A DNA stretch of 32,265 nt from a virus (Duplodnaviria > Heunggongvirae > Uroviricota > Caudoviricetes), in IMG/VR virus record IMGVR_UViG_2651869694_000010. One strand, written 5' to 3'. Within the stretch, counting starts at the first letter, position 1. Each line of letters starts with the position of its first letter. Shown here piece by piece: positions 1,695-32,265 of this stretch. The translations under genes were made by a program, and so were the position numbers. The notes beneath the pieces are model-generated. The model saw only the letters and a list, made by a program, of their open reading frames with translations. It was not told where the DNA came from and ran no database searches.

Positions 1695-2447
1695 ATGAAC
1701 CTTGAAGCCTTACCAAAATATTACTCCCCAAAATCTCCAAAATTGAGTGATGCCGCACCGGCGACAGGCTCAGGTGGTTTAACGATTACGGATGTGATGG
1801 CTGCGCAGGGGATGGTGCAGTCGAAAGCACCGCTTGGGTTTGCCTTATTCCTGGCAAAAGCTGGCGTTCAGGATCCTCAGTTTGCGATTGAAGGTCTGCT
1901 CAATTACGCGATGGCACTGGATAACCCGACATTGAACAAATTGAGTGAAGAAATCCGGTTACAGATCATCCCTTACCTTGTGAGTTTTGCCTTTGCTGAT
2001 TATTCCAGGTCTGCGGCAAGTAAGGCTCGCTGTGAGCCTTGTGCTGGTACTGGATTTCATAATGTATTGCGCGAAGTGGTGAAATACTCCAGAAGCGGGG
2101 AGTCTGTTATCAAGGAAGAGTGGGGGAAGGAACTATGTCAGCATTGTCATGGTAAGGGAGAAGTCAGCACAGCGTGCAGAGGGTGTAAGGGTAAAGGTAT
2201 TGTCCTGGATGAAAAAAGGACCCGGCTTCATGGCGCGCCTGTTTATAAGATTTGTGGGCGTTGCAATGGAAACCGGTTTAGTCGTTTACCAACGACACTG
2301 GCGCGGTGTCATGTCCAGAAGCTGGTACCAGACCTGACTGATTATCAGTGGTACAAAGGATATGCAGATGTCATTGATAAACTGGTTACAAAGTGCTGGC
2401 AGGAAGAAGCATATGCTGAGGTGCAATTAAGAAAAGTGACGAGATAA
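1695..2447 (+). CDS. quuQ: late-gene antitermination protein Q
   Basis: ATG at 1695 preceded by GGAGAA; N-terminus MNLEALPKYYSPKSPKLSD and Cys-rich zinc-binding region (CEPCAGTG, CQHCHGKG, CRGCKGKG, CGRCNG) match my recollection of Qin QuuQ/phage-82-type Q proteins. Sits immediately upstream of the lysis region. Confidence 0.75.
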   Translation: MNLEALPKYYSPKSPKLSDAAPATGSGGLTITDVMAAQGMVQSKAPLGFALFLAKAGVQDPQFAIEGLLNYAMALDNPTLNKLSEEIRLQIIPYLVSFAFADYSRSAASKARCEPCAGTGFHNVLREVVKYSRSGESVIKEEWGKELCQHCHGKGEVSTACRGCKGKGIVLDEKRTRLHGAPVYKICGRCNGNRFSRLPTTLARCHVQKLVPDLTDYQWYKGYADVIDKLVTKCWQEEAYAEVQLRKVTR

Positions 2448-2478
2448 ATGATTTTCGCCGAAGATGGCGACGTAATGC

Positions 2479-2507
2479 TTGCATTTTTCAAAAAATATGG
2501 ATAAAAT
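2479..2507 (+). promoter_or_regulatory. candidate late promoter pR' (sigma70-like)
   Basis: TTGCAT (2479-2484), 17-nt spacer, TAAAAT (2502-2507), located 30-60 nt downstream of the Q stop, where lambdoid pR'/qut elements lie. Confidence 0.4.
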
Positions 2508-2552
2508 TTTTTCAACGATGGGCTTTATATACCCGACGTTAAGAAAAAGTAG

Positions 2553-2580
2553 AAAACCCGCTGATGAGCGGGTTTTTGTG
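2553..2580 (+). terminator. intrinsic terminator (tR'-like) downstream of candidate pR'
   Basis: Stem ACCCGC (2556-2561), loop TGATGA, stem GCGGGT (2568-2573), followed by a T-run; an A-run upstream could make it bidirectional. Confidence 0.6.
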
Positions 2581-2862
2581 CTTTAAATAGGGTAATAGAG
2601 ATGTTGAATCTCATTCCGGGATTCATGTTTGTTTACTTATTATTTATCGGGTGACTTTGCCTGATGTTTAAAATGTTTTCTTCCAGTACTATGTCCCTAG
2701 ATACAATGAGTCTGCATATTACATTATTAGCAGAGCTATTACGGTCAAAGTACAGCATAAGCTTTTAAAGCCAATCAACCAGTCATCAAGACAGACGGGG
2801 TTATTCATGAAAACTCTCCATGTTTGATTCGATGGGGCCTGAAATTAAAGCTTTAATATAGC

Positions 2863-3075
2863 TCATGAAAGGTAAACATTGGCAGCTGAAGGGCCACGCA
2901 GACCATTTATCCGGCAAAATTCCACGCGTAATCCGGTGGTAATTTCTTCTGCATCGCGGAGATTGAGCGCTGAAACATGAAGCTGGACATCGATACGACC
3001 ATCGGATGGGGTGATAAGACCCTTGCCGCTTTTGCCGTCAAAGGTTTTGACAATTCCTGTCATTTTACGGGACAA
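2863..3075 (-). CDS. cspF: cold-shock protein family member (CspF/CspH-like)
   Basis: 70-aa CspA-family sequence [26 protein letters not shown]...[10 protein letters not shown]; same position and orientation relative to Q as cspF in Qin. Confidence 0.8.
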
Positions 3076-3239
3076 AAAAATTCCTTAATACTGATAACTG
3101 GGCGCACTATACACACGTTCCTGAAGAAAGCTATAGTTTTTTGATGGGGTTGAAGATGGCTGGATGTCTAAAATAAACATTGCTTCATATGTTCAACTAT
3201 GCGTTAATGATTGCGTCGGTTTGAAGAACAGACGATATA

Positions 3240-3375
3240 CGAAGTAGTTTACTAAAGCAGTTCTCATTTCAGGTGTTATTCACTTATTCCTTCTTTGAGT
3301 CTCTCCAATTAAGTACGAAGTCGTTTCTGTTATACAAGCCATTTATGCCGAAAGGCTCAAGTTAAGGAATGTAGA
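3240..3375 (+). promoter_or_regulatory. cspB-type 5' leader with cold-shock-gene upstream motif
   Basis: GCCGAAAGGC (3347-3356) about 20 nt upstream of the start codon resembles the conserved element in cspA-family 5' UTRs; boundaries are approximate. Confidence 0.3.
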
Positions 3376-3591
3376 ATGTCAAATAAAATGACTGGTTTAG
3401 TAAAATGGTTTAACGCTGATAAAGGTTTTGGCTTTATTTCTCCTGTTGATGGTAGTAAAGATGTGTTTGTGCATTTTTCTGCGATTCAGAATGATAATTT
3501 TCGAACCTTATTTGAAGGTCAAAAGGTTACCTTCTCTGTAGAGAGTGGTGCTAAAGGTCCTGCAGCAGCAAATGTCATAATTACTGATTAA
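3376..3591 (+). CDS. cspB: cold-shock protein CspB-like
   Basis: [23 protein letters not shown]...VHFSAIQ...[11 protein letters not shown] carries the RNP1/RNP2-like motifs of CspA-family proteins. Confidence 0.85.
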
Positions 3592-3872
3592 AATTCATAG
3601 TTTGTCTGTATACGATAACGAAGAAGGCTGATGCCTGAGTGGAGATACAGACAGAGTGGTGAATATTGGATCTCTTTAATAAATAGTAAGGAGGTCCAAT
3701 ACATGAAACAATGGCCAGCATATTTGGCAATAACTTAATCAGGAAAAGTATGCTAACCATTGTGGTGAAGTGCAGGTTTGCTGCATGAATAGTTTTACAG
3801 CAGAAGCTAACTGCTGGCATAGCAAAACAAAGTGCGTAAGTGGATGACTCCCACAAAAAGTACCACAATATT

Positions 3873-3897
3873 AAACCCGCTCAGGCGGGTTTTTTAT
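3873..3897. terminator. bidirectional intrinsic terminator between cspB (+) and a zinc-ribbon gene (-)
   Basis: AACCCGC (3874-3880), loop TCAG, GCGGGTT (3885-3891), flanked by an A-rich tract upstream and a T-run downstream. Confidence 0.5.
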
Positions 3898-3954
3898 TAT
3901 CTGCTTTAAATATGTTATTAAAATATAAAAAATACTTGTTACGAATAAAATCAA

Positions 3955-4125
3955 TCAAGCTACAGCTTTAAGATTTGTCTGGAATACTTTGTTGCAATGA
4001 GGGCAGATCAAAAGGGCACCTTTTTGTACTCTTGAAAAACTGTGTTCTGACTCTTGGGTGCAGTTTGGGCAGGAACATTTAACGAGATAATTACGGCGTG
4101 ATTTTGAGTCTTTACGTTCTGACAT
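3955..4125 (-). CDS. small C4 zinc-ribbon protein (about 56 aa)
   Basis: MSERKDSKSRRNYLVKCSCPNCTQESEHSFSRVQKGALLICPHCNKVFQTNLKAVA has two CxxC pairs; ATG at 4125 on the minus strand is preceded by AGGAAAA. The longer 4176 start is also possible. Confidence 0.45.
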   Translation of the reverse strand: MSERKDSKSRRNYLVKCSCPNCTQESEHSFSRVQKGALLICPHCNKVFQTNLKAVA

Positions 4126-4343
4126 AGGCTTTTCCTGTATAAATGGCCGTATACAGTACACTAAATATGAAAACATATCTCGTATTATTATTTAATATAT
4201 GATTTTCTTTTAAAATAATTACCCACATTTTTAATGTGTCTGTTTTTTAGCGCCGTTGAGAACAACGTTTGCTATAAAAACTAACCCATAGACTCCGATC
4301 TTTTCAAACATATTGCACCATCTGTGTACATCGGGGTGAGGAT

Positions 4344-4559
4344 ATGAAATCAATGGATAAGTTAACAACAGGTATCGCCTATGGCACATCGGCTGGTAAT
4401 GCTGGTTTCTGGGCATTGCAGTTACTCGATAAAGTAACTCCGTCACAGTGGGCTGCAATCGGTGTGCTGGGTAGTCTGGTTTTTGGCCTGCTGACGTATC
4501 TGACAAACCTTTATTTCAAGATTAAAGAAGACAGGCGTAAGGTTGCGAGAAGAGAGTAA
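4344..4559 (+). CDS. S: class II holin (phage 21 S-type pinholin) with dual-start motif
   Basis: [71 protein letters not shown] matches my recollection of phage 21 S and EssD/EssQ; Met1-Lys-Ser-Met4 gives the antiholin/holin alternative starts. Confidence 0.9.
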
Positions 4560-4563
4560 TCCA

Positions 4564-5115
4564 ATGACACAAGACTATGAACTGGTTGTGAAAGGAGTCC
4601 GCAATTTTGAGAATAAAGTGGCGGTAACTGTAGCCTTACGGGACAAAAAACGCTTTGACGGTGAAATTTTTGACCTGGACATCTCGCTGGACCGTGTTGA
4701 AGGTGCCGCGCTTGAGTTTTATGAGGCAGCAGCGAGAAGGAGCATCAGACAGGTCTTCCTGGATGTTGCTGCCGGGTTATGTGTAGGGGATGAGCAGTCG
4801 CCGGAAAAGCGCCCCATAATTTTAGAGGCGCAGAATGTGTGGATAACCTACAAAGGAAAGCTACCGGGAAGAATTACTGGTTCTCTGAAGACGCCACCGA
4901 CGGCATTGCGGTCAGAAAAAGATGATATTGAATCGCCCATTGAAAAACTGGAGGGCAGCGTCGCTGATCTGAATAAAAAATTGTCGGTGCTGATCCCTTC
5001 TGAAGATGAAAAAAAACGCCGCGATGAGCAGTTTGCGGCGTTTTACGATTATTGCATTGAAGTTACTCGCAGGAATTTTGTGAAGATTTTTGAAGAGGGT
5101 AAATCTCTTCAGTAA
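4564..5115 (+). CDS. ydfR: YdfR/DUF1327-like protein of unknown function inside the lysis cassette
   Basis: ATG at 4564 just after the holin stop; N-terminus MTQDYELVVKGVRNFENKVAVTVAL matches my recollection of K-12 YdfR. No transmembrane segment is evident. Confidence 0.5.
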   Translation: MTQDYELVVKGVRNFENKVAVTVALRDKKRFDGEIFDLDISLDRVEGAALEFYEAAARRSIRQVFLDVAAGLCVGDEQSPEKRPIILEAQNVWITYKGKLPGRITGSLKTPPTALRSEKDDIESPIEKLEGSVADLNKKLSVLIPSEDEKKRRDEQFAAFYDYCIEVTRRNFVKIFEEGKSLQ

Positions 5116-5323
5116 GCTTAATGGCGGACGCTGCAATTAATTCAGGAAGGTCCGCAAGGTCATCTGTCAGTGGATATGATGAAAAATCGGCGGCAGTTCT
5201 GTTAAGAAGCGCTTTAACTAATTCCTTTTCCTTCTCCGGCAACAAGTTGATTAGAGCTACGACTGCTTGCCTGAGTGCGATTAAATCAGCAAAAGTTTGT
5301 TTTGGTAGATTTGTGTAATCCAT
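5063..5323 (-). CDS. hypothetical acidic small protein, convergent with and overlapping the ydfR-like gene
   Basis: 86-aa ORF from ATG at 5321-5323 (minus), preceded by GAGGTG with 5-nt spacing. Predicted helical and acidic; I recognise no family. Confidence 0.35.
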   Translation of the reverse strand: MDYTNLPKQTFADLIALRQAVVALINLLPEKEKELVKALLNRTAADFSSYPLTDDLADLPELIAASAIKLTEEIYPLQKSSQNSCE

Positions 5324-5436
5324 AGTCACCTCTGTGTTTATCAGATTGACATCCTCCTCCCGCCAGTGCCCATCACTGGTGAGGTAAGATTTAACATATC
5401 CGGGGATTTGAAGCCGATAAATCCTGATAAATATCC

Positions 5437-6464
<1,028 letters not shown>

Positions 6465-6824
6465 ATTAATATTAAATCGGATTATTTTTAGCGCTGAATG
6501 TGAAATTTAAATAAAAAGGACTCTTCCATGAGTCAAAATCCTTGAAATCTTAAGGGTAAGATAAAAGGTCATTAGACAGAATGACACGTTTTATTAATAA
6601 ATAAAGCTATTGTTTCATTCGTGTGTTTTTCTTTACAAAAGTAATCCTTGCTATGGTTGGTTAATCATGCGTTAATGGTGTTCTGGTTTGTTACAAAATT
6701 ATCTGAAGCAGTCATTGTTATAATTTTATTATTTGTACCTCTTGAGATTTCCTTGTTGGTTTTTCTCTCTGATATTTTTTTTCGGACCATTCTGCCCAAG
6801 GGCTAACTTCTTCAAAAGGTAATA

Positions 6825-7040
6825 ATGATGTCTAACAAAATGACTGGTTTAGTGAAATGGTTTAACCCTGAAAAAGGTTTTGGTTTCATCACGCCGAAAG
6901 ATGGTAGCAAAGATGTGTTTGTCCATTTCTCAGTTATTCAGAGCAACGATTTCAAAACGTTAACTGAGAATCAGGAAGTCGAATTTGGTATTGAGAACGG
7001 ACCTAAAGGCCCCGCGGCTGTTCATGTAGTGGCACTTTGA
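6825..7040 (+). CDS. cspI: cold-shock protein CspI-like
   Basis: [36 protein letters not shown]... is a CspA-family sequence, located after Rz as cspI is in Qin. Confidence 0.8.
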
Positions 7041-7243
7041 GGTAGAAAATATTACAAACCATATTCACTTTAGATGCCCGTGTTGCCATGGTTCTCAGTA
7101 TAGAACATCATCTTTTGATGTTTCTGACAGGAATCCTTTCGGGGCAAAATGTATCTTTTGTAAATCAATGATGATTACATTTGATAATATTTCACAATAC
7201 TTAAATGTTAGCCGTCTGTCGTTAGATTTAAGAAAGTGAAAAT

Positions 7244-7267
7244 GAAGGCTCCTTCGGGAGCTTTTTT
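7244..7267 (+). terminator. candidate intrinsic terminator
   Basis: GCTCC-TTCG-GGAGC hairpin followed by TTTTTT. Confidence 0.45.
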
Positions 7268-7311
7268 GCTTAGTGTCTGGTCGATGGATACTCACATATT
7301 ACGGTAACATT

Positions 7312-7542
7312 ATGAAAAAAATAATAGTTTTTTTTAACTCTGAACCAGCAATGGTAGTGCCAGTGATGACCGGAGTTAACACCATCATGCGTGAATATCC
7401 AAATGGCGAAACAACACACCTCACTGTAATGGCTGCAGGGTTTCCATCTCTGACCGGAGATCATAAAGTCATTTATGTTGCAGCGGATCGACATGTAACT
7501 TCAGAAGAAATTCTGGAAGCAGCAATGAGACTCTTGAATTGA
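7312..7542 (+). CDS. hypothetical small protein (about 76 aa)
   Basis: ORF from ATG at 7312 (the listed ORF starts at an upstream GTG, 7273): MKKIIVFFNSEPAMVVPVMTGVNTIMREYPNGETTHLTVMAAG... No confident family assignment; occupies the Qin accessory position between cspI and gnsB. Confidence 0.35.
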   Translation: MKKIIVFFNSEPAMVVPVMTGVNTIMREYPNGETTHLTVMAAGFPSLTGDHKVIYVAADRHVTSEEILEAAMRLLN

Positions 7543-7711
7543 TTTGATTCTAATGCATTGATAATAAATGATAATCATCTTTATCTGTTTGTGTGAAATT
7601 TAGACCGTCGTATGTTGATTATTGCGATGTTTCATCTTATCTTTTATACGTTTGCTCCATATAATTGACACTACTGTGTACCAGGAAAGTCATAACAGAC
7701 TAAAAGAGGAA

Positions 7712-7889
7712 ATGATGAACATTGAAGAGTTAAAAACAAAAACAGAAGCAGATATTTCTGAATATATAACAAAAAAAAATCATTGAGCTTAAGAAAAAGA
7801 CCGGGAAAGAAGTTACCAGTATCCAGTTTACTGCACGGGAAAAAATGACTGGTCTTGAAAGCTATGATATCAAGATTGATTTAATCTAG
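7712..7889 (+). pseudogene. gnsB: gnsB/gnsA-family gene interrupted by a frameshift in an A9 run
   Basis: MMNIEELKTKTEADISEYITKK runs into a TGA at 7784-7786; removing one A from the A9 tract (7771-7779) restores ...IIELKKKTGKEVTSIQFTAREKMTGLESYDIKIDLI, matching GnsA/GnsB-family proteins as I recall them. Confidence 0.55.
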
Positions 7890-8184
7890 TATGTTTATAG
7901 TATTAGCATCAATTTCTCATCAGATGCTATTCAACAATACAAATTACCCATAAACCTCGTTTTTACGGGGTTTTGTTATATTTAAACATTACCGAATAGA
8001 TATAAATCTCGATTGTCGATGGTATTGGTTGTGTGACAATACCTAGTCTTTCCGGTATGCCTGAAGAGAATACAAACGACAGATTATGTAAGGGAAACGC
8101 GCTGAAACTTTCACTCTTTCATGCTGAGTGATTTGACGTTATATTTTTAGCCGCAAGTGAAGAGCAAACGCATGGAGCGACAAA

Positions 8185-8391
8185 ATGCATAAAGATCAAT
8201 ATACTGATGCCCCCTCCCAGGAGCAGGTTCGTGTAAAAACTATGCTTAATAGCACCATTTCGATGGGTTACCCGGATGTTGTAATTGCATGTATAGAACA
8301 TCAAGTATCTCTGGAAGCATTCAGGGCAATTGAGGCCGCGTTAGTAAAGCACGATAAGAATACGAAGGATTATTCCCTGGTGGTTGACTGA
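8185..8391 (+). CDS. hypothetical small protein (68 aa)
   Basis: ORF only; lies where Qin carries ydfO/ynfO-type accessory genes, but I cannot confirm identity. Confidence 0.3.
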
Positions 8392-8754
8392 TCACCATAA
8401 CTGCTAACCATTCTGACCATTTCACAAGTGACAGAGTCAATATCGTATTCTGTCACTGTCAGGCTAATACAGTACTGCAATTCAACTACAGCAATGCCTC
8501 GTATTTAGGTGAATTTACAATATCGTCCAGTTCGGATGCCGGCTGCATTTCTGAAGATAAGGCATTTCGGTTCGCGTATTTTCCCCTCATGCTCGTCAGT
8601 CCTGCGCGTAGTAAGAAACAGGACACTCACACTAATTTGTGTGGGCATGCTGTGATGTCCTTCTGAATTATCCCCACGCCATTATGTAAAGCTCTGTTTC
8701 AGATGCTCGTCACGGTTGTCAGGCTGTCGGGTCCTCCCTGTGGGGGGCCCTGCC

Positions 8755-11540: not shown

Positions 11541-11749
11541 ACCAGAATGATATCGAAGCCATGATTCAGCGTTATACGGAAGCTGAAATGGCGGTGCTGG
11601 ACGGAAAATCCGTCACCTTTAATGGTCAGCAGATGACCATGGAAAACTTATCTGAGATCCGGCAGGGACGGCAGGAGTGGGAGCGCCGCCTTGCGGCTCT
11701 GATTACACGACGACGGGGGCATCCCGGGTACCGGCTGGCGAGGTTCTGA
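11537..11749 (+). CDS. W: head-tail joining protein W-like
   Basis: About 70 aa ending ...RRRGHPGYRL, similar to the lambda gpW C-terminus; ATG at 11537 with GGAGG 6 nt upstream; stop overlaps the portal start (ATGA). Confidence 0.75.
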   Translation: MNQNDIEAMIQRYTEAEMAVLDGKSVTFNGQQMTMENLSEIRQGRQEWERRLAALITRRRGHPGYRLARF

Positions 11750-13257
11750 TGGCAATTCTTGATGATGTGATTGGCGTTTTTTCACCAGGATGGAAAGCGG
11801 CAAGGCTGCGTTCCCGTGCGGTGATCCAGGCTTATGAGGCCGTAAAAACGACGCGGACACACAAAGCCCGGCGGGAAAACCGAACTGCCGACCAGTTAAG
11901 CCAGTACGGGGCCGTGTCGTTACGTGAGCAGGCCCGTTACCTTGATAACAACCACGATCTGGTTATTGGTGTATTTGACAAGCTGGAAGAACGGGTGGTG
12001 GGGAAAAACGGGATTATTGTCGAGCCACATCCGGTATTACGCAATGGGGCCATTGCCCGTGACCTGGCTGCGGAGATTCGCACCCGATGGAGTGAATGGT
12101 CTGTCAGCCCGGAAGTCACCGGGCAGTTTACCCGTCCGATGCTGGAACGTCTGATGCTGCGTACCTGGCTGCGCGATGGTGAGGTGTTTGCCCAGATGGT
12201 TTCCGGGCGCATAAACAGCCTGACGCCTTCTGCCGGTGTTCATTTCTGGTTGGAGGCGCTAGAGCCAGACTTTATTCCCATGACCAGTGATGAGAGCAAC
12301 AGGCTGAATCAGGGCGTGTTTGTTGATGACTGGGGGCGTCCCGAAAAATATCTGGTGTATAAAAGCCGTCCCGTATCCGGACGGCAGATGGAAACCAAAG
12401 AAGTGGATGCAGAGCGAATGCTGCATCTTAAATTTGTTCGCCGTCTGCACCAGATGCGCGGGACGTCTTTGTTGTCCGGTGTGCTGATCCGCCTCAGTGC
12501 CCTGAAAGAGTATGAAGATTCTGAGCTGACTGCAGCAAGGATCGCCGCTGCTCTGGGGATGTACATCCGCAAAGGCGACGGGCAGAGCTATGAACCGGAT
12601 GGTAATGGCAGCAAGGATAAGGAACGCGAGCTTACCATTCAGCCAGGCATTATTTACGACGATCTGAAACCCGGCGAAGAAATCGGAATGGTGAAGTCGG
12701 ATCGCCCCAATCCTAATCTTGAAACTTTTCGTAATGGTCAGTTGCGTGCAGTGGCGGCTGGCAGTCGTCTGAGTTTTTCCAGTACAGCGCGCAACTATAA
12801 CGGCACTTACAGCGCCCAGCGTCAGGAGCTGGTTGAATCCACTGATGGCTACCTGATCCTGCAGGACTGGTTTATTGGTGCCGTCACCCGCCCGATGTAC
12901 CGTGCCTGGCTGAAACAGGCTGTGGCATCCGGTGTTATCAGGCTACCCCGCGATCTTGACCGTTCTTCACTGTATACCGCGGTGTATTCCGGACCGGTGA
13001 TGCCGTGGATTGACCCTGTTAAGGAGGCTGAGGCCTGGAAAATCCAGATTCGTGGTGGAGCGGCGACAGAATCAGACTGGGTACGTGCTGGTGGTCGTAA
13101 TCCGGATGATGTCAAACGTCGGCGCAAGGCCGAAATTGATGAAAACCGCAAGCTGGATCTGGTATTTGATACCGATCCGGCCAGTGATAAAGGAGGTAGC
13201 AGTGCCGCAACGAAACGACAGGAGCCGCAGCACACCAACAACCAGTCCGAAGAATAA
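11749..13257 (+). CDS. B: portal protein (lambda gpB-like)
   Basis: 502 aa from ATG at 11749, in the canonical position after W. Confidence 0.9.
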   Translation: MAILDDVIGVFSPGWKAARLRSRAVIQAYEAVKTTRTHKARRENRTADQLSQYGAVSLREQARYLDNNHDLVIGVFDKLEERVVGKNGIIVEPHPVLRNGAIARDLAAEIRTRWSEWSVSPEVTGQFTRPMLERLMLRTWLRDGEVFAQMVSGRINSLTPSAGVHFWLEALEPDFIPMTSDESNRLNQGVFVDDWGRPEKYLVYKSRPVSGRQMETKEVDAERMLHLKFVRRLHQMRGTSLLSGVLIRLSALKEYEDSELTAARIAAALGMYIRKGDGQSYEPDGNGSKDKERELTIQPGIIYDDLKPGEEIGMVKSDRPNPNLETFRNGQLRAVAAGSRLSFSSTARNYNGTYSAQRQELVESTDGYLILQDWFIGAVTRPMYRAWLKQAVASGVIRLPRDLDRSSLYTAVYSGPVMPWIDPVKEAEAWKIQIRGGAATESDWVRAGGRNPDDVKRRRKAEIDENRKLDLVFDTDPASDKGGSSAATKRQEPQHTNNQSEE

Positions 13258-13270
13258 TTCCTGGTTCAGG

Positions 13271-15229
13271 ATGCAGGCTGGTCACCAGAGTGACGCGGAT
13301 ATTTATATTTATGACGAGATTGGTTTCTGGGGTGTTACGGCGAAGCAGTTTATCAGTGATCTGAATGCACTGGGCGATATCACCCACATTAATCTCCATA
13401 TCAATTCACCGGGTGGCGATGTCTTTGAAGGCATCGCCATTTTTAATGCACTGAAAACACATGGTGCGTCCATTACCGTTTATGTCGACGGAGTGGCGGC
13501 ATCAATGGCGTCGGTCATTGCGATGGTGGGAAACCCGGTCATTATGCCGGAAAACACTTTCATGATGATTCATAAACCATTTGGCTTTACGGGCGGTGAT
13601 GCGGAGGACATGCGCACCTATGCCGACCTGCTCGATAAAGTTGAGGCGGTTCTCTTACCCGCTTATGCACAGAAAACCGGGAAAACCACCGATGAAATTG
13701 CTGCCATGCTGGCGGATGAGACCTGGATGTCCGGAGCCGAATGTCTGGCTCATGGATTTGCTGACCAGGTGACGCCAGCGGTTAAGGCAATGGCATGTAT
13801 TCAGTCAAAACGTACAGAGGAATTTAAAAAGATGCCGGAATCTATTCGAAACATGATTACTCCGCCACGTAACAGTGCTCCACGCGTACCGGATGATGAA
13901 CCAGCAGCACCCCGGACGCCAGTGCAGGCAGCAGCACCCGTGGTGGATGAAAACAGCATCCGTGCGCAGGTACTGGCAGAGCAAAAAGCGCGTGTAAACG
14001 GTATTAATGATCTGTTTGCCATGTTTGGCGGGCGTTATCAGGCGCTGCAGGCTCAGTGCCTTGCCGATCCTGAGTGTTCGCTGGAGCAGGCCCGCGAGAA
14101 GCTGTTGAACGAGATGGGGCGAGAGTCCACGCCATCCAATAAAAATACCCCGGCTCATATTTATGCCGGTAACGGTAATTTTGTGGGGGACGGGATCCGC
14201 CAGGCGCTGATGGCGCGTGCCGGATTTGAAAAAACCGAACGTGATAATGTCTACAACGGGATGACCCTGCGTGAATATGCCCGTATGTCACTGACTGAAC
14301 GGGGTATTGGGGTTTCCAGTTATAACCCGATGCAGATGGTCGGTGCGGCGTTCACACACAGTACGTCTGACTTCGGTAATATTCTGCTGGATGTTGCGAA
14401 CAAAGCCATTCTGCAGGGCTGGGAAGATGCCCCTGAAACCTATGAACAGTGGACGCGGAAAGGTCAGTTGTCTGATTTTAAAATTGCCCATCGTGTGGGT
14501 ATGGGGGGCTTCAGTGCTCTGCGTCAGGTGCGTGAAGGGGCGGAATATAAATACGTCACCACCGGAGATAAACAGGCCACTATTGCACTGGCGACCTATG
14601 GCGAGCTGTTCAGTATCACCCGTCAGGCCATTATCAATGATGATCTGAATATGCTGACCGATGTCCCGATGAAACTGGGCCGTGCGGCGAAATCCACTAT
14701 TGCCGATCTGGTTTATGCCATTCTGACGTCTAACCCGAAAATCTCCACAGATAATGTAAGTCTGTTCGATAAAGCGAAACATGCAAACGTACTGGAGAGC
14801 GCTGCAATGGACGTGGCATCGCTGGATAAAGCCCGCCAGTTGATGCGCGTTCAGAAAGAGGGGGAGCGTCATCTGAATATTCGTCCTGCGTTCGTACTGG
14901 TACCGACGGCGATGGAGTCTGTTGCTAACCAGGTCATTCGCTCCTCAAGTGTCAAGGGGGCTGACATTAACGCCGGTATTATTAACCCGGTGAAAGATTT
15001 TGCGACCGTTATTGCAGAGCCTCGTCTTGATGATAACAGCCAGACCACCTTCTACCTGGCTGCGTCAAAAGGCTCCGATACGATTGAAGTGGCTTATCTC
15101 AACGGTGTGGATACGCCATATATTGATCAGATGGAGGGCTTCAGTGTGGATGGCGTGACAACGAAAGTGCGTATTGACGCCGGTGTCGCGCCAGTTGATC
15201 ACCGCGGTCTGGTGAAATGTACGGCGTAA
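13271..15229 (+). CDS. prohead protease-scaffold-major capsid fusion protein
   Basis: N-terminal ClpP-like (S14) protease region (INSPGGDVFEGIAIFNALK...ASMASVIAMVG...MIHKP), a Pro/Ala-rich linker, then an approximately 350-aa C-terminal capsid-like region. A single 652-aa ORF replaces lambda C, Nu3 and E. Confidence 0.75.
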   Translation: MQAGHQSDADIYIYDEIGFWGVTAKQFISDLNALGDITHINLHINSPGGDVFEGIAIFNALKTHGASITVYVDGVAASMASVIAMVGNPVIMPENTFMMIHKPFGFTGGDAEDMRTYADLLDKVEAVLLPAYAQKTGKTTDEIAAMLADETWMSGAECLAHGFADQVTPAVKAMACIQSKRTEEFKKMPESIRNMITPPRNSAPRVPDDEPAAPRTPVQAAAPVVDENSIRAQVLAEQKARVNGINDLFAMFGGRYQALQAQCLADPECSLEQAREKLLNEMGRESTPSNKNTPAHIYAGNGNFVGDGIRQALMARAGFEKTERDNVYNGMTLREYARMSLTERGIGVSSYNPMQMVGAAFTHSTSDFGNILLDVANKAILQGWEDAPETYEQWTRKGQLSDFKIAHRVGMGGFSALRQVREGAEYKYVTTGDKQATIALATYGELFSITRQAIINDDLNMLTDVPMKLGRAAKSTIADLVYAILTSNPKISTDNVSLFDKAKHANVLESAAMDVASLDKARQLMRVQKEGERHLNIRPAFVLVPTAMESVANQVIRSSSVKGADINAGIINPVKDFATVIAEPRLDDNSQTTFYLAASKGSDTIEVAYLNGVDTPYIDQMEGFSVDGVTTKVRIDAGVAPVDHRGLVKCTA

Positions 15230-15251
15230 ACGTCGCAGACAACAATTCTGA

Positions 15252-15271
15252 TGGCCCGTAAGGGCTTTTTT
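15252..15271 (+). terminator. candidate intrinsic terminator after the capsid gene
   Basis: GGCCC-GTAA-GGGCT hairpin followed by seven T; a second 7-bp hairpin (15283-15301) without a U-run follows. Confidence 0.45.
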
Positions 15272-15315
15272 TGTACCTGAAATCAGCCCCTGAACGGGGC
15301 TGTGCGGAGACAGTT

Positions 15316-15639
15316 ATGGCAAAGAATTTTGTAGAAGAAGGAAAAACGGTGGCGATTGTTGCCAGTGCAGCCATCAGCAGCGGAGACCTGGTGCAGGTGG
15401 GTGATGTTTTTGCGGTGGCGCTGACCGATATTCCACAGGGTGAAACAGGCGACGTCCTGACCGAAGGTGTGTTTATGCTGCCTAAGCTGAAAACGGATGA
15501 CATGAAAACGGGTAAGAAGGTTTATCTGAAGTCCGGAAAAGTTCAGCTGACTAACAGCGGCTCTGATCCGCTGGTCGGGGTTGTCTGGGCAGATGCCGGA
15601 ACCAGTGCAGAAGAAGTGCCGGTAAAACTCAATGTCTGA
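15316..15639 (+). CDS. DUF2190-like small head protein (possible decoration/cement protein)
   Basis: About 107 aa from ATG at 15316 (MAKNFVEEGKTVAIVASAAISSGDLVQVGDVFAVAL...); Gly/Val-rich beta-type protein directly after the capsid gene. Confidence 0.45.
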   Translation: MAKNFVEEGKTVAIVASAAISSGDLVQVGDVFAVALTDIPQGETGDVLTEGVFMLPKLKTDDMKTGKKVYLKSGKVQLTNSGSDPLVGVVWADAGTSAEEVPVKLNV

Positions 15640-15907
15640 TCCCTTTTCCCGGCTGGCAGCGCGTATGGATGCGATCACGGTCAGAAAGATGGGAAAGACA
15701 GCCTCGATTAATGATGTCGATATGACTGTGATCCCGGGAGAAACACTGGCAGAGCTGAATGCTCTGTCCGGACCTGCGGTCTCTCTGGTGGTGTTTTCTT
15801 CGGGATACCGCCCACGGCGCGGGGATCGCGTTGTTTATGACGGACAACATTGGACGGTCACACGGCATGAACGCTTTAACGGTAAGCCAATGATCTTTAT
15901 TGAGTAA
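15632..15907 (+). CDS. putative head completion / head-tail connector protein
   Basis: 91-aa ORF between the head genes and the Z-like gene; assignment by position only. Confidence 0.35.
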   Translation: MSDPFSRLAARMDAITVRKMGKTASINDVDMTVIPGETLAELNALSGPAVSLVVFSSGYRPRRGDRVVYDGQHWTVTRHERFNGKPMIFIE

Positions 15908-17748: not shown

Positions 17749-18138
17749 ATGATGTTTCTGAAACAGGACACGTTTAATTATGAAAAACAGTCCGTAGTGC
17801 TCAGTGAGCTGTCCGGGCTGCAGAGAATTGAATATCTGACGTTTGTTCAGCAGCGAACGGCAAAGTTTGATGCCGGGGAGGGAGAACTGCCGGAGGCTGA
17901 ACGACAGATTGCTTTTCTGCGGATGGGGATGGATATCAATGCCTGGCTGGTTTCCCGCTCACTGTGGAATGCGGAACAGTCTCAGGATGTTGAGACGCTT
18001 TACGCATCCGTTATTACAACATGGTCGTATGATGCCCTGGGTGCGGGGGCGGAGATGGTTCTGTCGCTGAGCGGTATGGGGGCCATTGATAATGCCGGGG
18101 ATTTGGAGCATGAGGTGCTGACGCCGGAAAAGTCCTGA
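17749..18138 (+). CDS. G: tail assembly chaperone G
   Basis: MMFLKQDTFNYEKQSVVLSELSGLQRIEYL resembles lambda gpG (MFLKTESFEHNGVTVTLSELSALQRIEHL as I recall it); start at 17749 or 17752. Confidence 0.85.
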   Translation: MMFLKQDTFNYEKQSVVLSELSGLQRIEYLTFVQQRTAKFDAGEGELPEAERQIAFLRMGMDINAWLVSRSLWNAEQSQDVETLYASVITTWSYDALGAGAEMVLSLSGMGAIDNAGDLEHEVLTPEKS

Positions 18139-18476
18139 CGCGGGAAATGCAGTTTGTCATGCGGCTTGCCCGGGAGTTCCGGCGGGCAGACTGGCGGCGG
18201 ATGCTGTCGGAAATGTCGGCCACTGAGCTTGGTGAGTGGGGCGATTATTTCCGGATGCAGAGCTTCAGTGATGTGTGGATGGATGCGCAGTTTGCCTCGC
18301 TGAAGGCATTGATCGTGAGAATGGTGTCCGGCAGCAGTGATGCTGCGGTGGCTGATTTCAGCCTTTTACCGGAAGAGAACGGGATACCGGAGCGAACGGA
18401 CGAAGAACTGATGCATCTTGGGGAAGGTATTTCCGGAGGTGTGCGTTATGGACCAGATAGCCAACCTGGTCATTGA
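18114..18476 (+). CDS. T: T-frame extension of G (G-T fusion by programmed -1 frameshift)
   Basis: The -1 frame is open only from 18114 (stops at 18087, 18090 and 18111) and continues to 18476, while G stops at 18136-18138; this reproduces the lambda G/G-T arrangement. The only candidate slip site is GAA AAG (18127-18132). Confidence 0.6.
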   Translation, partial: GADAGKVLTREMQFVMRLAREFRRADWRRMLSEMSATELGEWGDYFRMQSFSDVWMDAQFASLKALIVRMVSGSSDAAVADFSLLPEENGIPERTDEELMHLGEGISGGVRYGPDSQPGH

Positions 18477-27386: not shown

Positions 27387-27986
27387 ATGCGTAAACTTTA
27401 TGCCGCCATTTTTTCCGCAGCCATTTGTCTGGCCGTATCCGGTGCGCCTGCATGGGCATCTGAACATCAGTCCACGCTGAGCGCGGGGTATCTTCATGCC
27501 TCGACGAACGTTCCCGGCAGTGATGATCTGAACGGGATTAACGTGAAATACCGTTATGAGTTTACGGACACACTGGGGATGGTGACGTCGTTCAGCTATG
27601 CAGGAGACAAGAATCGCCAGCTGACCCATTACAGCGATACCCGCTGGTATGAAGATTCCGTGCGTAACCGCTGGTTCAGCGTGATGGCGGGGCCGTCTGT
27701 GCGCGTGAATGAATGGTTCAGCGCGTATGCGATGGCGGGTGTGGCTTACAGCCGTGTGTCGACTTTCTCCGGGGATTATCTCCGCGTAACTGACAACAAG
27801 GGGAAAAAGCACGATGTGCTGACCGGAAGTGATGACGGTCGCCACAGCAACACGTCTCTGGCGTGGGGAGCTGGCGTGCAGTTTAACCCGACCGAATCCG
27901 TGGCCATTGATGTCGCTTATGAAGGCTCCGGCAGTGGTGACTGGCGCACTGACGGGTTCATCGTGGGTGTTGGTTATAAATTCTGA
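27387..27986 (+). CDS. lom: Lom-like outer membrane beta-barrel protein (Ail/OmpX/Lom family)
   Basis: Signal peptide MRKLYAAIFSAAICLAVSGAPAWA, alternating beta-strand pattern, C-terminal ...GFIVGVGYKF typical of OMP barrels; sits between J and stf as in lambda. Confidence 0.85.
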   Translation: MRKLYAAIFSAAICLAVSGAPAWASEHQSTLSAGYLHASTNVPGSDDLNGINVKYRYEFTDTLGMVTSFSYAGDKNRQLTHYSDTRWYEDSVRNRWFSVMAGPSVRVNEWFSAYAMAGVAYSRVSTFSGDYLRVTDNKGKKHDVLTGSDDGRHSNTSLAWGAGVQFNPTESVAIDVAYEGSGSGDWRTDGFIVGVGYKF

Positions 27987-32031: not shown

Positions 32032-32265
32032 TTATGTGTGAGATGAATTATAAATAATTTCAGAGTGAAATTTGGTAATGAATGTGGAGTCATCAGGAAT
32101 GTCATGCAGTACCAATGCATGAGCTCCTATTTTTACATTATTCCCTATATGCACTTTGCCACCAAGGATGGTGGCGTTACAGCCAATGGTTACATTATTT
32201 CCTATGACAATATCCATATCATTAAATTCACCGCGAAGTCCAATAGTTACCCCAGGCTTAATTGA
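32032..32265 (-). CDS. hexapeptide-repeat (left-handed beta-helix) acyl/acetyltransferase-like protein, C-terminal fragment
   Basis: Minus-strand frame is open to the window edge. ...VTIGLRGEFNDMDIVIGNNVTIGCNATILGGKVHIGNNVKIGAHALVLHDIP shows the [LIV]-G-x4 hexapeptide periodicity. The region is AT-rich compared with the adjacent tail genes. Confidence 0.45.
   Translation of the reverse strand, partial: SIKPGVTIGLRGEFNDMDIVIGNNVTIGCNATILGGKVHIGNNVKIGAHALVLHDIPDDSTFITKFHSEIIYNSSHT

Follow-up and report, generated by a model that had tools for sequence, protein, structure and literature searches.

A probable Escherichia coli prophage ortholog of the Gifsy-2 capsid gene carries ClpP-like protease, candidate scaffold and coat domains in one reading frame

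The window, meaning the whole 32,265-nt stretch of viral DNA that was analysed, opens with a lambdoid late region carrying a Q-type antiterminator, followed by a low-GC block (35–47% GC) of lysis and cold-shock genes. The head genes then come in the order DUF1441 small-terminase-like gene, large terminase, a small gene, lambda-family portal, the protease-capsid fusion gene considered here, a DUF2190 gene and a PF13856 gene, and they are succeeded by a lambda-like tail part (Z, U, V, G, T, H, M, L, K, I and J, then Lom and the side tail fibre). Over 32,180 bases the window was 99.6% identical to a prophage of E. coli Ec1120. The genes and signals around the fusion gene were as follows.

11749–13257, + strand: portal protein gene, lambda family (PF05136 Phage_portal_2, E 5.8e-82; RefSeq annotation of the near-identical prophage)
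13190–13195, + strand: Shine-Dalgarno sequence AGGAGG, read from the sequence, 6 nt before GTG 13202
13202–15229, + strand: probable complete gene for the protease-scaffold-coat polyprotein, 675 aa, 73.5 kDa (PGAP start, Shine-Dalgarno analysis, N-terminal extension in 14/17 sequences)
13271–15229, + strand: open reading frame within the limits of the initial annotation, 652 aa from ATG (translation, NF045540, phrog_133)
15316–15639, + strand: head decoration/cement protein gene, 107 aa (PF09956, that is DUF2190 or Phage_cement_2, E 3e-21; phrog_122)
15632–15907, + strand: small protein of the Pfam 'Gifsy-2' family (PF13856, E 2.5e-17; weak match to PF05354 Phage_attach; phrog_153)

Translation of 13271–15229 (+) yielded 652 residues ending at TAA, with zero internal stops, and residue numbers throughout refer to this 652-aa numbering from ATG 13271. 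The initial annotation had described a single 652-aa ORF; its uninterrupted frame stood, whereas the true start is probably GTG 13202 (675 aa), 69 nt 5' of the ATG. We took GTG 13202 as the start because of its Shine-Dalgarno strength, its PGAP annotation and the occurrence of the resulting 23-residue N-terminal extension in 14 of the 17 aligned sequences. The frame stays open 5' as far as 13010, and among the in-frame start candidates GTG 13202 had the best predicted duplex with the anti-Shine-Dalgarno sequence (−12.9 kcal/mol), while ATG 13271, with a predicted duplex of −2.2 kcal/mol, is nearly devoid of a Shine-Dalgarno sequence. RefSeq/PGAP starts the E. coli Ec1120 copy, which is 100% identical, at the same GTG, giving 675 aa. 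From this start, the fusion gene overlaps the 3' end of the portal gene (stop codon at 13255–13257) by 56 nt. Public records place the start codon of the fusion gene inconsistently.

The protein belongs to a recognised and widespread family. It matched the NCBIfam model NF045540 (scaf_prot_MCP1), 'ClpP-like prohead protease/major capsid protein fusion protein', from end to end (986.7 bits, E 6.3e-297, against a curated cut-off of 475), with protein residues 9–651 aligned to model positions 2–651 of 652, and it matched phrog_133 (PHROG 133) over its full length. Of 5426 complete E. coli genomes, 2111 (about 39%) had a match to the gene, and in 2017 complete E. coli genomes it took the form of a single ORF covering at least 80% of the query. 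Sixteen phage records carry the fusion gene at 95–99% DNA identity; in mEp460, cdtI, Ayreon, Tritos, HannyBb and phi458 the identity was 97.9–98.7% over the whole 1959 bases, with point differences only, so that the window gene is effectively the same gene as in these phages. DNA identity of 98–99% to genes of isolated phages suggests that the fusion gene is functional. In a library of 1.84 billion representatives, 38,707 relatives were found at E ≤1e-3, and most of the best 150 clusters aligned essentially over the full length, at about 36–60% identity.

These distributions bear on whether the fusion is real. A protease-scaffold gene and a coat gene might have been joined by a sequencing or assembly frameshift, a hazard that the initial annotation had itself raised, or the ORF might be a decayed prophage gene. 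We gave this explanation next to no credence: the ORF is uninterrupted in the 2017 complete E. coli genomes, in the 16 phage records, in Gifsy-2 and in a Pseudomonas phage at 57% identity, most of the best library clusters are full length, and the fusion has a curated NCBIfam model of its own. A sequencing frameshift in particular is excluded because the same single ORF recurs in E. coli genomes, phages and representative clusters.

The domain structure of the protein was examined with an AF2 model built from 98 diverse relatives, which reached a mean pLDDT of 88.3 and contained three folded parts, divided by disordered segments at residues 200–223 and 293–301. A model built from 17 sequences at 77–99% identity had a pLDDT of 36.7 and was discarded. 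The parts of the protein map to the window as follows.

13271–13867, + strand: ClpP-fold serine protease domain, residues 1–199
13502–13504, + strand: codon of the predicted catalytic Ser78 (GVAASMAS), aligned with the ClpP active-site AASM
13571–13573, + strand: codon of the predicted catalytic His101 (MMIHKP), aligned with ClpP MIHQP
13868–13939, + strand: hypervariable disordered linker rich in Pro, Ala, Thr and Gln, residues 200–223 (pLDDT below 50)
13940–14146, + strand: three-helix middle domain, residues 224–292 (AF2 pLDDT 92–97)
14147–14173, + strand: second low-confidence segment, PAHIYAGNG, residues 293–301 (pLDDT below 50)
14174–15226, + strand: coat (major capsid) domain, HK97 fold, Mu gpT-like, residues 302–652 (PF25209, PF10124, JBD30 profile, BFVD)

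The N-terminal part matched Pfam CLP_protease over residues 23–168 (E 4.5e-36) and, well above cut-off, the NCBIfam domain model NF045542 ('head maturation protease, ClpP-related'). The corresponding domain of the AF2 model superposes on ClpP, and in PDB fold searches with the full-length model the matches listed were all of the ClpP/crotonase fold, which took up the whole output. The protease catalytic residues, which the initial annotation had wanted verified on an alignment, are in place as Ser and His: Ser78 was conserved in 130 and His101 in 129 of 131 diverse fusion-protein relatives, both were invariant throughout the 98-sequence alignment, and the ClpP motifs INSPGG, GxAASM and MIHxP were almost invariant in relatives down to about 35% identity. 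Where E. coli ClpP has the Asp of its triad (Asp171), the window protein aligns with Glu150, which is Glu in 109 of the 131 relatives; Asp149 adjoins it, but is variable among relatives. Since Glu150 occupies the triad Asp position, catalysis may, as far as the alignment indicates, proceed by a Ser-His dyad or with Glu as the third residue. The Glu would also fit a catalytically dead domain, retained only as a bulky scaffold, with any maturation carried out by a host protease. However, the near-invariance of Ser78, His101 and the ClpP motifs is the pattern expected under selection for catalysis, and the strong NF045542 match points the same way; we therefore consider a dead protease very improbable.

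Between the protease and the coat, sequence conservation is uneven. Across 15 relatives that are 80–100% identical in the protease domain, the linker at residues 200–223 contained indels and was only 21–66% identical. The middle domain that follows consists in the AF2 model of helices at residues 227–250, 257–265 and 271–284; its position, and the parallel with the delta domain of HK97 and with Nu3 of lambda, make it a candidate internal scaffold. Beside the second disordered segment lies an indel-rich stretch, residues 289–295, with gaps in 30–60% of diverse relatives. Judging from the structure model, the segments at 200–223 and 293–301 are both candidate cut sites of the polyprotein, and the latter is a candidate maturation cleavage region. 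A literature search for a published cleavage site in the fusion family found nothing usable. A preprint on a CBASS prohead protease was set aside, its subject being the protease-scaffold fusions of T1-like phages.

The C-terminal part matched Pfam Phage_capsid_4 (PF25209) over residues 354–649 (E 1.2e-54, 186.8 bits against a cut-off of 27) and Mu-like_gpT (PF10124; 33.5 bits against a cut-off of 20.1). Assignment of its fold rests on the predicted structures of BFVD together with a sequence profile. In BFVD, the coat domain matched major capsid proteins with TM scores (by target) of 0.81, 0.69 and 0.71, as well as an entry named 'major capsid protein, HK97', and a profile of the coat part matched the JBD30 coat protein (8rkc/8rkx) and 9jod at E about 5e-13. 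A phmmer search of the PDB with the single sequence returned ClpP only; the coat match needed the coat-part profile. The AF2 model of this domain has N-arm helices, a long helix at residues 460–487 and C-terminal beta structure. A ClpP-like protease and a C-terminal capsid domain on one ORF, as first proposed from the DNA, are thus confirmed by CLP_protease, Phage_capsid_4, NF045540 and the AF2 model, and the model likewise upholds the proposed linker/scaffold-like segment between them.

A further question is whether the gene yields one product or two. An in-frame internal start, for example at Met188 just past the protease domain, would give a protease-less scaffold-coat protein, such that only a minority of subunits carried the protease. 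A GAGGA-like sequence lies 9 nt 5' of Met188 (duplex −6.0 kcal/mol), Met188 and Pro189 are invariant in close relatives, and the nested C/Nu3 genes of lambda provide a precedent (Shaw and Murialdo 1980, cited in PMC8508860). Nevertheless, Met occurs at this position in just 13 of 98 diverse fusion proteins, the Shine-Dalgarno-like match is weak against the −12.9 kcal/mol of GTG 13202, and several other internal Met or Val codons score alike by chance. An internal start at Met188 was rejected as a conserved feature in view of the 13 of 98 relatives and the weak Shine-Dalgarno-like sequence, and a nested gene appears quite improbable overall. A single polyprotein, translated from one start, remains the preferred description.

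The gene directly after the coat domain is labelled 'DUF2190 family protein' in RefSeq. Its 107-aa product matched PF09956 at 76.2 bits (cut-off 24), PF22758 at 27.8 bits (cut-off 27) and phrog_122 (PHROG 122, 'head decoration') at E 1.1e-46; a sequence search of the decoration protein against the PDB gave no significant match, and a literature search on DUF2190 decoration proteins found nothing usable. The PF13856 gene beyond it occupies the position of a head-tail joining protein.

We compared the locus with Gifsy-2, which resides in Salmonella rather than E. coli. The Gifsy-2 gene (NC_010393, 22471–24561) is the same three-part single ORF, with 70% identity over 668 aligned residues; its coat half is near 90% identical to the window protein, whereas the protease domain and linker are more diverged, the linker having another length and sequence. 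The Gifsy-2 product is 696 aa long, compared with 675 aa here, where the N-terminal extension is shorter. Gene order also matches (terminase subunits, small gene, portal, fusion, 107-aa protein, small protein, Z, U, V, G, T and H), the fusion gene likewise overlaps the portal gene, and the 107-aa protein encoded after it is 60% identical to the window decoration protein. The Gifsy-2 record labels its 696-aa gene after the portal 'Clp protease involved in capsid processing'. Both the Gifsy-2-like architecture and the DUF2190-like neighbour that had been proposed from the DNA therefore found support, the former in the protein identity and surrounding gene order, the latter in PF09956, phrog_122 and the Gifsy-2 counterpart.

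For Gifsy-2, Effantin et al. 2010 (Virology 402:355) reportedly described a ClpP-like protease at the N-terminus, a middle domain of about 200 residues that may serve in scaffolding and a coat protein at the C-terminus, and are said to have fitted cryo-EM maps with the HK97 coat and lambda gpD. One paper states that the prohead protease and coat genes of Gifsy-2 are fused (PMC12315714), another places a trimeric protein on each threefold axis of the capsid, as in lambda (PMC8538268), and a third gives the capsid as T=7 (PMC8814770). According to such citing papers, only the C-terminal fragment serves as coat protein in the mature Gifsy-2 virion, whose T=7 shell bears decoration trimers (PMC12315714, PMC8538268, PMC8814770).

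Similar genes occur in more distant phages. Gp5 of Pseudomonas phage MD8 (693 aa) has independently been described as a one-gene combination of protease, scaffold and coat (PMC8508860); as here, MD8 gp5 and its relatives come from lambdoid genomes and from one gene, with a product of about 690 aa, although the host is different and the sequences are more diverged. In Pseudomonas phage vB_Pae_CF165a the gene is present at full length, its product being 57% identical, and a small gene whose product starts MAKNY comes next. Other well-known systems distribute these functions differently from the window gene, in which a ClpP-type (S14) protease, scaffold and coat all lie on one chain. HK97 shares the HK97-fold coat, with an N-terminal internal scaffold that is removed by the prohead protease, but its protease is a separate gene of the herpesvirus-like S80 type and its coat forms crosslinks instead of recruiting a decoration protein. 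Lambda shares the lambda-family portal and tail and adds its decoration protein after expansion, but its S49-type protease is fused with the scaffold only (C/Nu3) and the coat protein E is separate. JBD30 gp38, of the Mu gpT family, is the closest solved coat by sequence profile (E 5e-13, 8rkc/8rkx), although the alignment starts only near residue 378 of the window protein, and in JBD30 the scaffold (gp33), protease (gp37) and coat (gp38) are separate genes. The JBD30 coat has the canonical HK97 fold; its shell is T=7, and minor capsid proteins sit as trimers on the threefold axes (PMC11445458).

Taken together, the gene is very probably orthologous to the tripartite capsid gene of Gifsy-2, here in a lambdoid prophage of E. 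coli, and encodes one protease-scaffold-coat polyprotein. Its maturation could then be envisaged in four steps. The polyprotein would be translated, possibly coupled to the portal gene with which it overlaps. On the lambda-family portal, its coat domains would come together as a procapsid, and the protease and helical domains, facing inward, would act as the HK97 delta domain or lambda Nu3 do. The protease, concentrated within the shell, would next cut the exposed linkers and degrade itself and the scaffold segment, leaving free coat protein of roughly 33–39 kDa. Finally, packaging would expand the shell, to which the 107-aa DUF2190/cement protein would bind as trimers, stabilising it in the manner of lambda gpD, as suggested by Gifsy-2 and related phages. 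The computed mass of the coat depends on its first residue: residue 293 would give 39.2 kDa, a start at about residue 348, close to the edge of the Pfam domain, 33.1 kDa, and residue 378, the first to align with the JBD30 coat, 29.9 kDa. Autoproteolytic release of a coat protein of roughly 33–39 kDa is what we infer from homology.

The fused protease-scaffold-coat architecture is already known and very common, and there is nothing new in the window copy: the architecture was published for Gifsy-2 in 2010 and again for the MD8-like phages of Pseudomonas, and it has its own NCBI family model. The practical value lies in annotation, as a gene called Nu3, protease or coat in fact combines all three. 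Names given to the fusion gene in public records clash (Nu3, protease C, Clp protease, scaffold protein, major head protein). Labels of head genes in coliphages vary similarly between protease/scaffold, head maturation protease and major capsid protein, an inconsistency of naming rather than of biology.

Two hairpins lie in the 86-nt spacer between the fusion gene and the decoration gene.

15253–15273, + strand: terminator-like hairpin GGCCC-GTAA-GGGCT followed by T7, just past the stop codon (scan and fold)
15284–15302, + strand: second hairpin, 7 bp, CAGCCCC-TGAAC-GGGGCTG, just 5' of the ribosome-binding site of the decoration gene (fold)

The spacer hairpins might constitute a partial terminator or an mRNA-stabilising element that sets the ratio of coat to decoration protein, or internal initiation near Met188 might supply protease-free scaffold-coat subunits; we regard regulation of either kind as unlikely, and if true it would add modestly to what is a known system. 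The terminator-like hairpin is conserved in Gifsy-2 and phage Eeyore, and Pseudomonas phage CF165a has a different hairpin in the same place. At the site of the second hairpin, Gifsy-2 has a different 7-bp stem (CCGGCAC-GGC-GTGCCGG), so that the pairing has been kept while the sequence changed.

Domain conservation in the fused protease–scaffold–coat protein (652 aa, window 13271-15229) differed between relatives when the protein was aligned with 16 close homologs (17 sequences in total). In some homologs (P0062), the coat domain was 100% identical to that of the window while the protease domain was only 80% identical, and the reverse was found in others (P0081; protease 99.5%, coat 73%). For the linker between these domains (residues 197-225), which contained indels, identity was 21–66% in all but one of the 16 relatives. 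Judged from these alignments, the fusion gene is mosaic, with breaks at domain boundaries, and its modules seem to have been shuffled by recombination despite being fused.

Directly after the protease domain (residues 180-207, window 13808-13891), diverse relatives share the short consensus F-D-L-S-x-F-x-N-x-P. Pro189 was present in 90 of 98 diverse relatives, and a second proline, Pro207, in 87 of 98, inside a linker that is hypervariable elsewhere. The motif and Pro207 may have a role in docking or cleavage, or may be alignment artefacts of a proline-rich region. Naming of the fusion gene varied across matched public records: Nu3, preconnector protease C, head maturation protease, putative protease, Clp protease ClpP, scaffold protein, major head protein and major capsid protein. 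Several matched database proteins were themselves chimeric fusions with adjoining genes (e.g. entries of 1027-1135 aa with terminase or portal domains).

Scanning and folding of the 86-nt spacer that separates the fusion gene from the downstream decoration gene (window 15230-15315) identified two hairpins:

15253-15273, hairpin 1, resembling a terminator, with a GGCCC/GGGCT stem and T7 on its 3' side
15284-15302, hairpin 2, a 7-bp stem directly 5' of the ribosome-binding site of the decoration gene

The spacer folded more strongly than shuffled sequences (z -2.4), and related phages carry structures at the same place. Both window hairpins are retained in phage Eeyore. The Gifsy-2 spacer retains the hairpin 1 stem, and at the position of hairpin 2 its sequence is wholly different but nonetheless forms a 7-bp stem, while the Pseudomonas relative (vB_Pae_CF165a) has its own GC-rich hairpin with a T-rich tail. 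Possible roles of these hairpins are partial termination or mRNA stabilisation downstream of a highly expressed coat gene.

The gene that follows the decoration gene (15632-15907, 91 aa) matches Pfam PF13856, titled 'Gifsy-2: ATP-binding sugar transporter from pro-phage', and is named 'DNA breaking-rejoining protein' in RefSeq and 'minor tail protein' in PHROGs. Its position and a weak Phage_attach match suggest a head-tail joining protein, and the three database names look like legacy misnomers. Further downstream, the sequence at the 3' end of tail chaperone gene G (window 18121-18150) is CCGGAAAAGTCCTGA, and T, with its ATG at 18147, is in the -1 frame with respect to G. As read from the sequence, this arrangement fits a lambda-type programmed -1 frameshift that would yield G-T, but the heptamer in the window, GGAAAAG, is not identical to the GGGAAAG of lambda.

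Outside the structural genes (GC about 52-59%), a block at about 2000-8500 had a GC content of 35-47%. It lies between the Q antiterminator and terminase genes and, according to the annotation of a 99.6%-identical prophage (E. coli Ec1120), contains a Qin-like lysis cassette with several interspersed cold-shock-protein genes (cspF, cspB, cspI, ynfQ), as well as gnsB. The same annotation places two likely lysogenic-conversion cargo genes elsewhere in the window:

27387-27986 (+), Lom-family outer-membrane protein gene, flanked by J and the side tail fibre gene
32032-32265 (-), serine acetyltransferase gene, directly after the tail-fibre assembly gene, on the opposite strand
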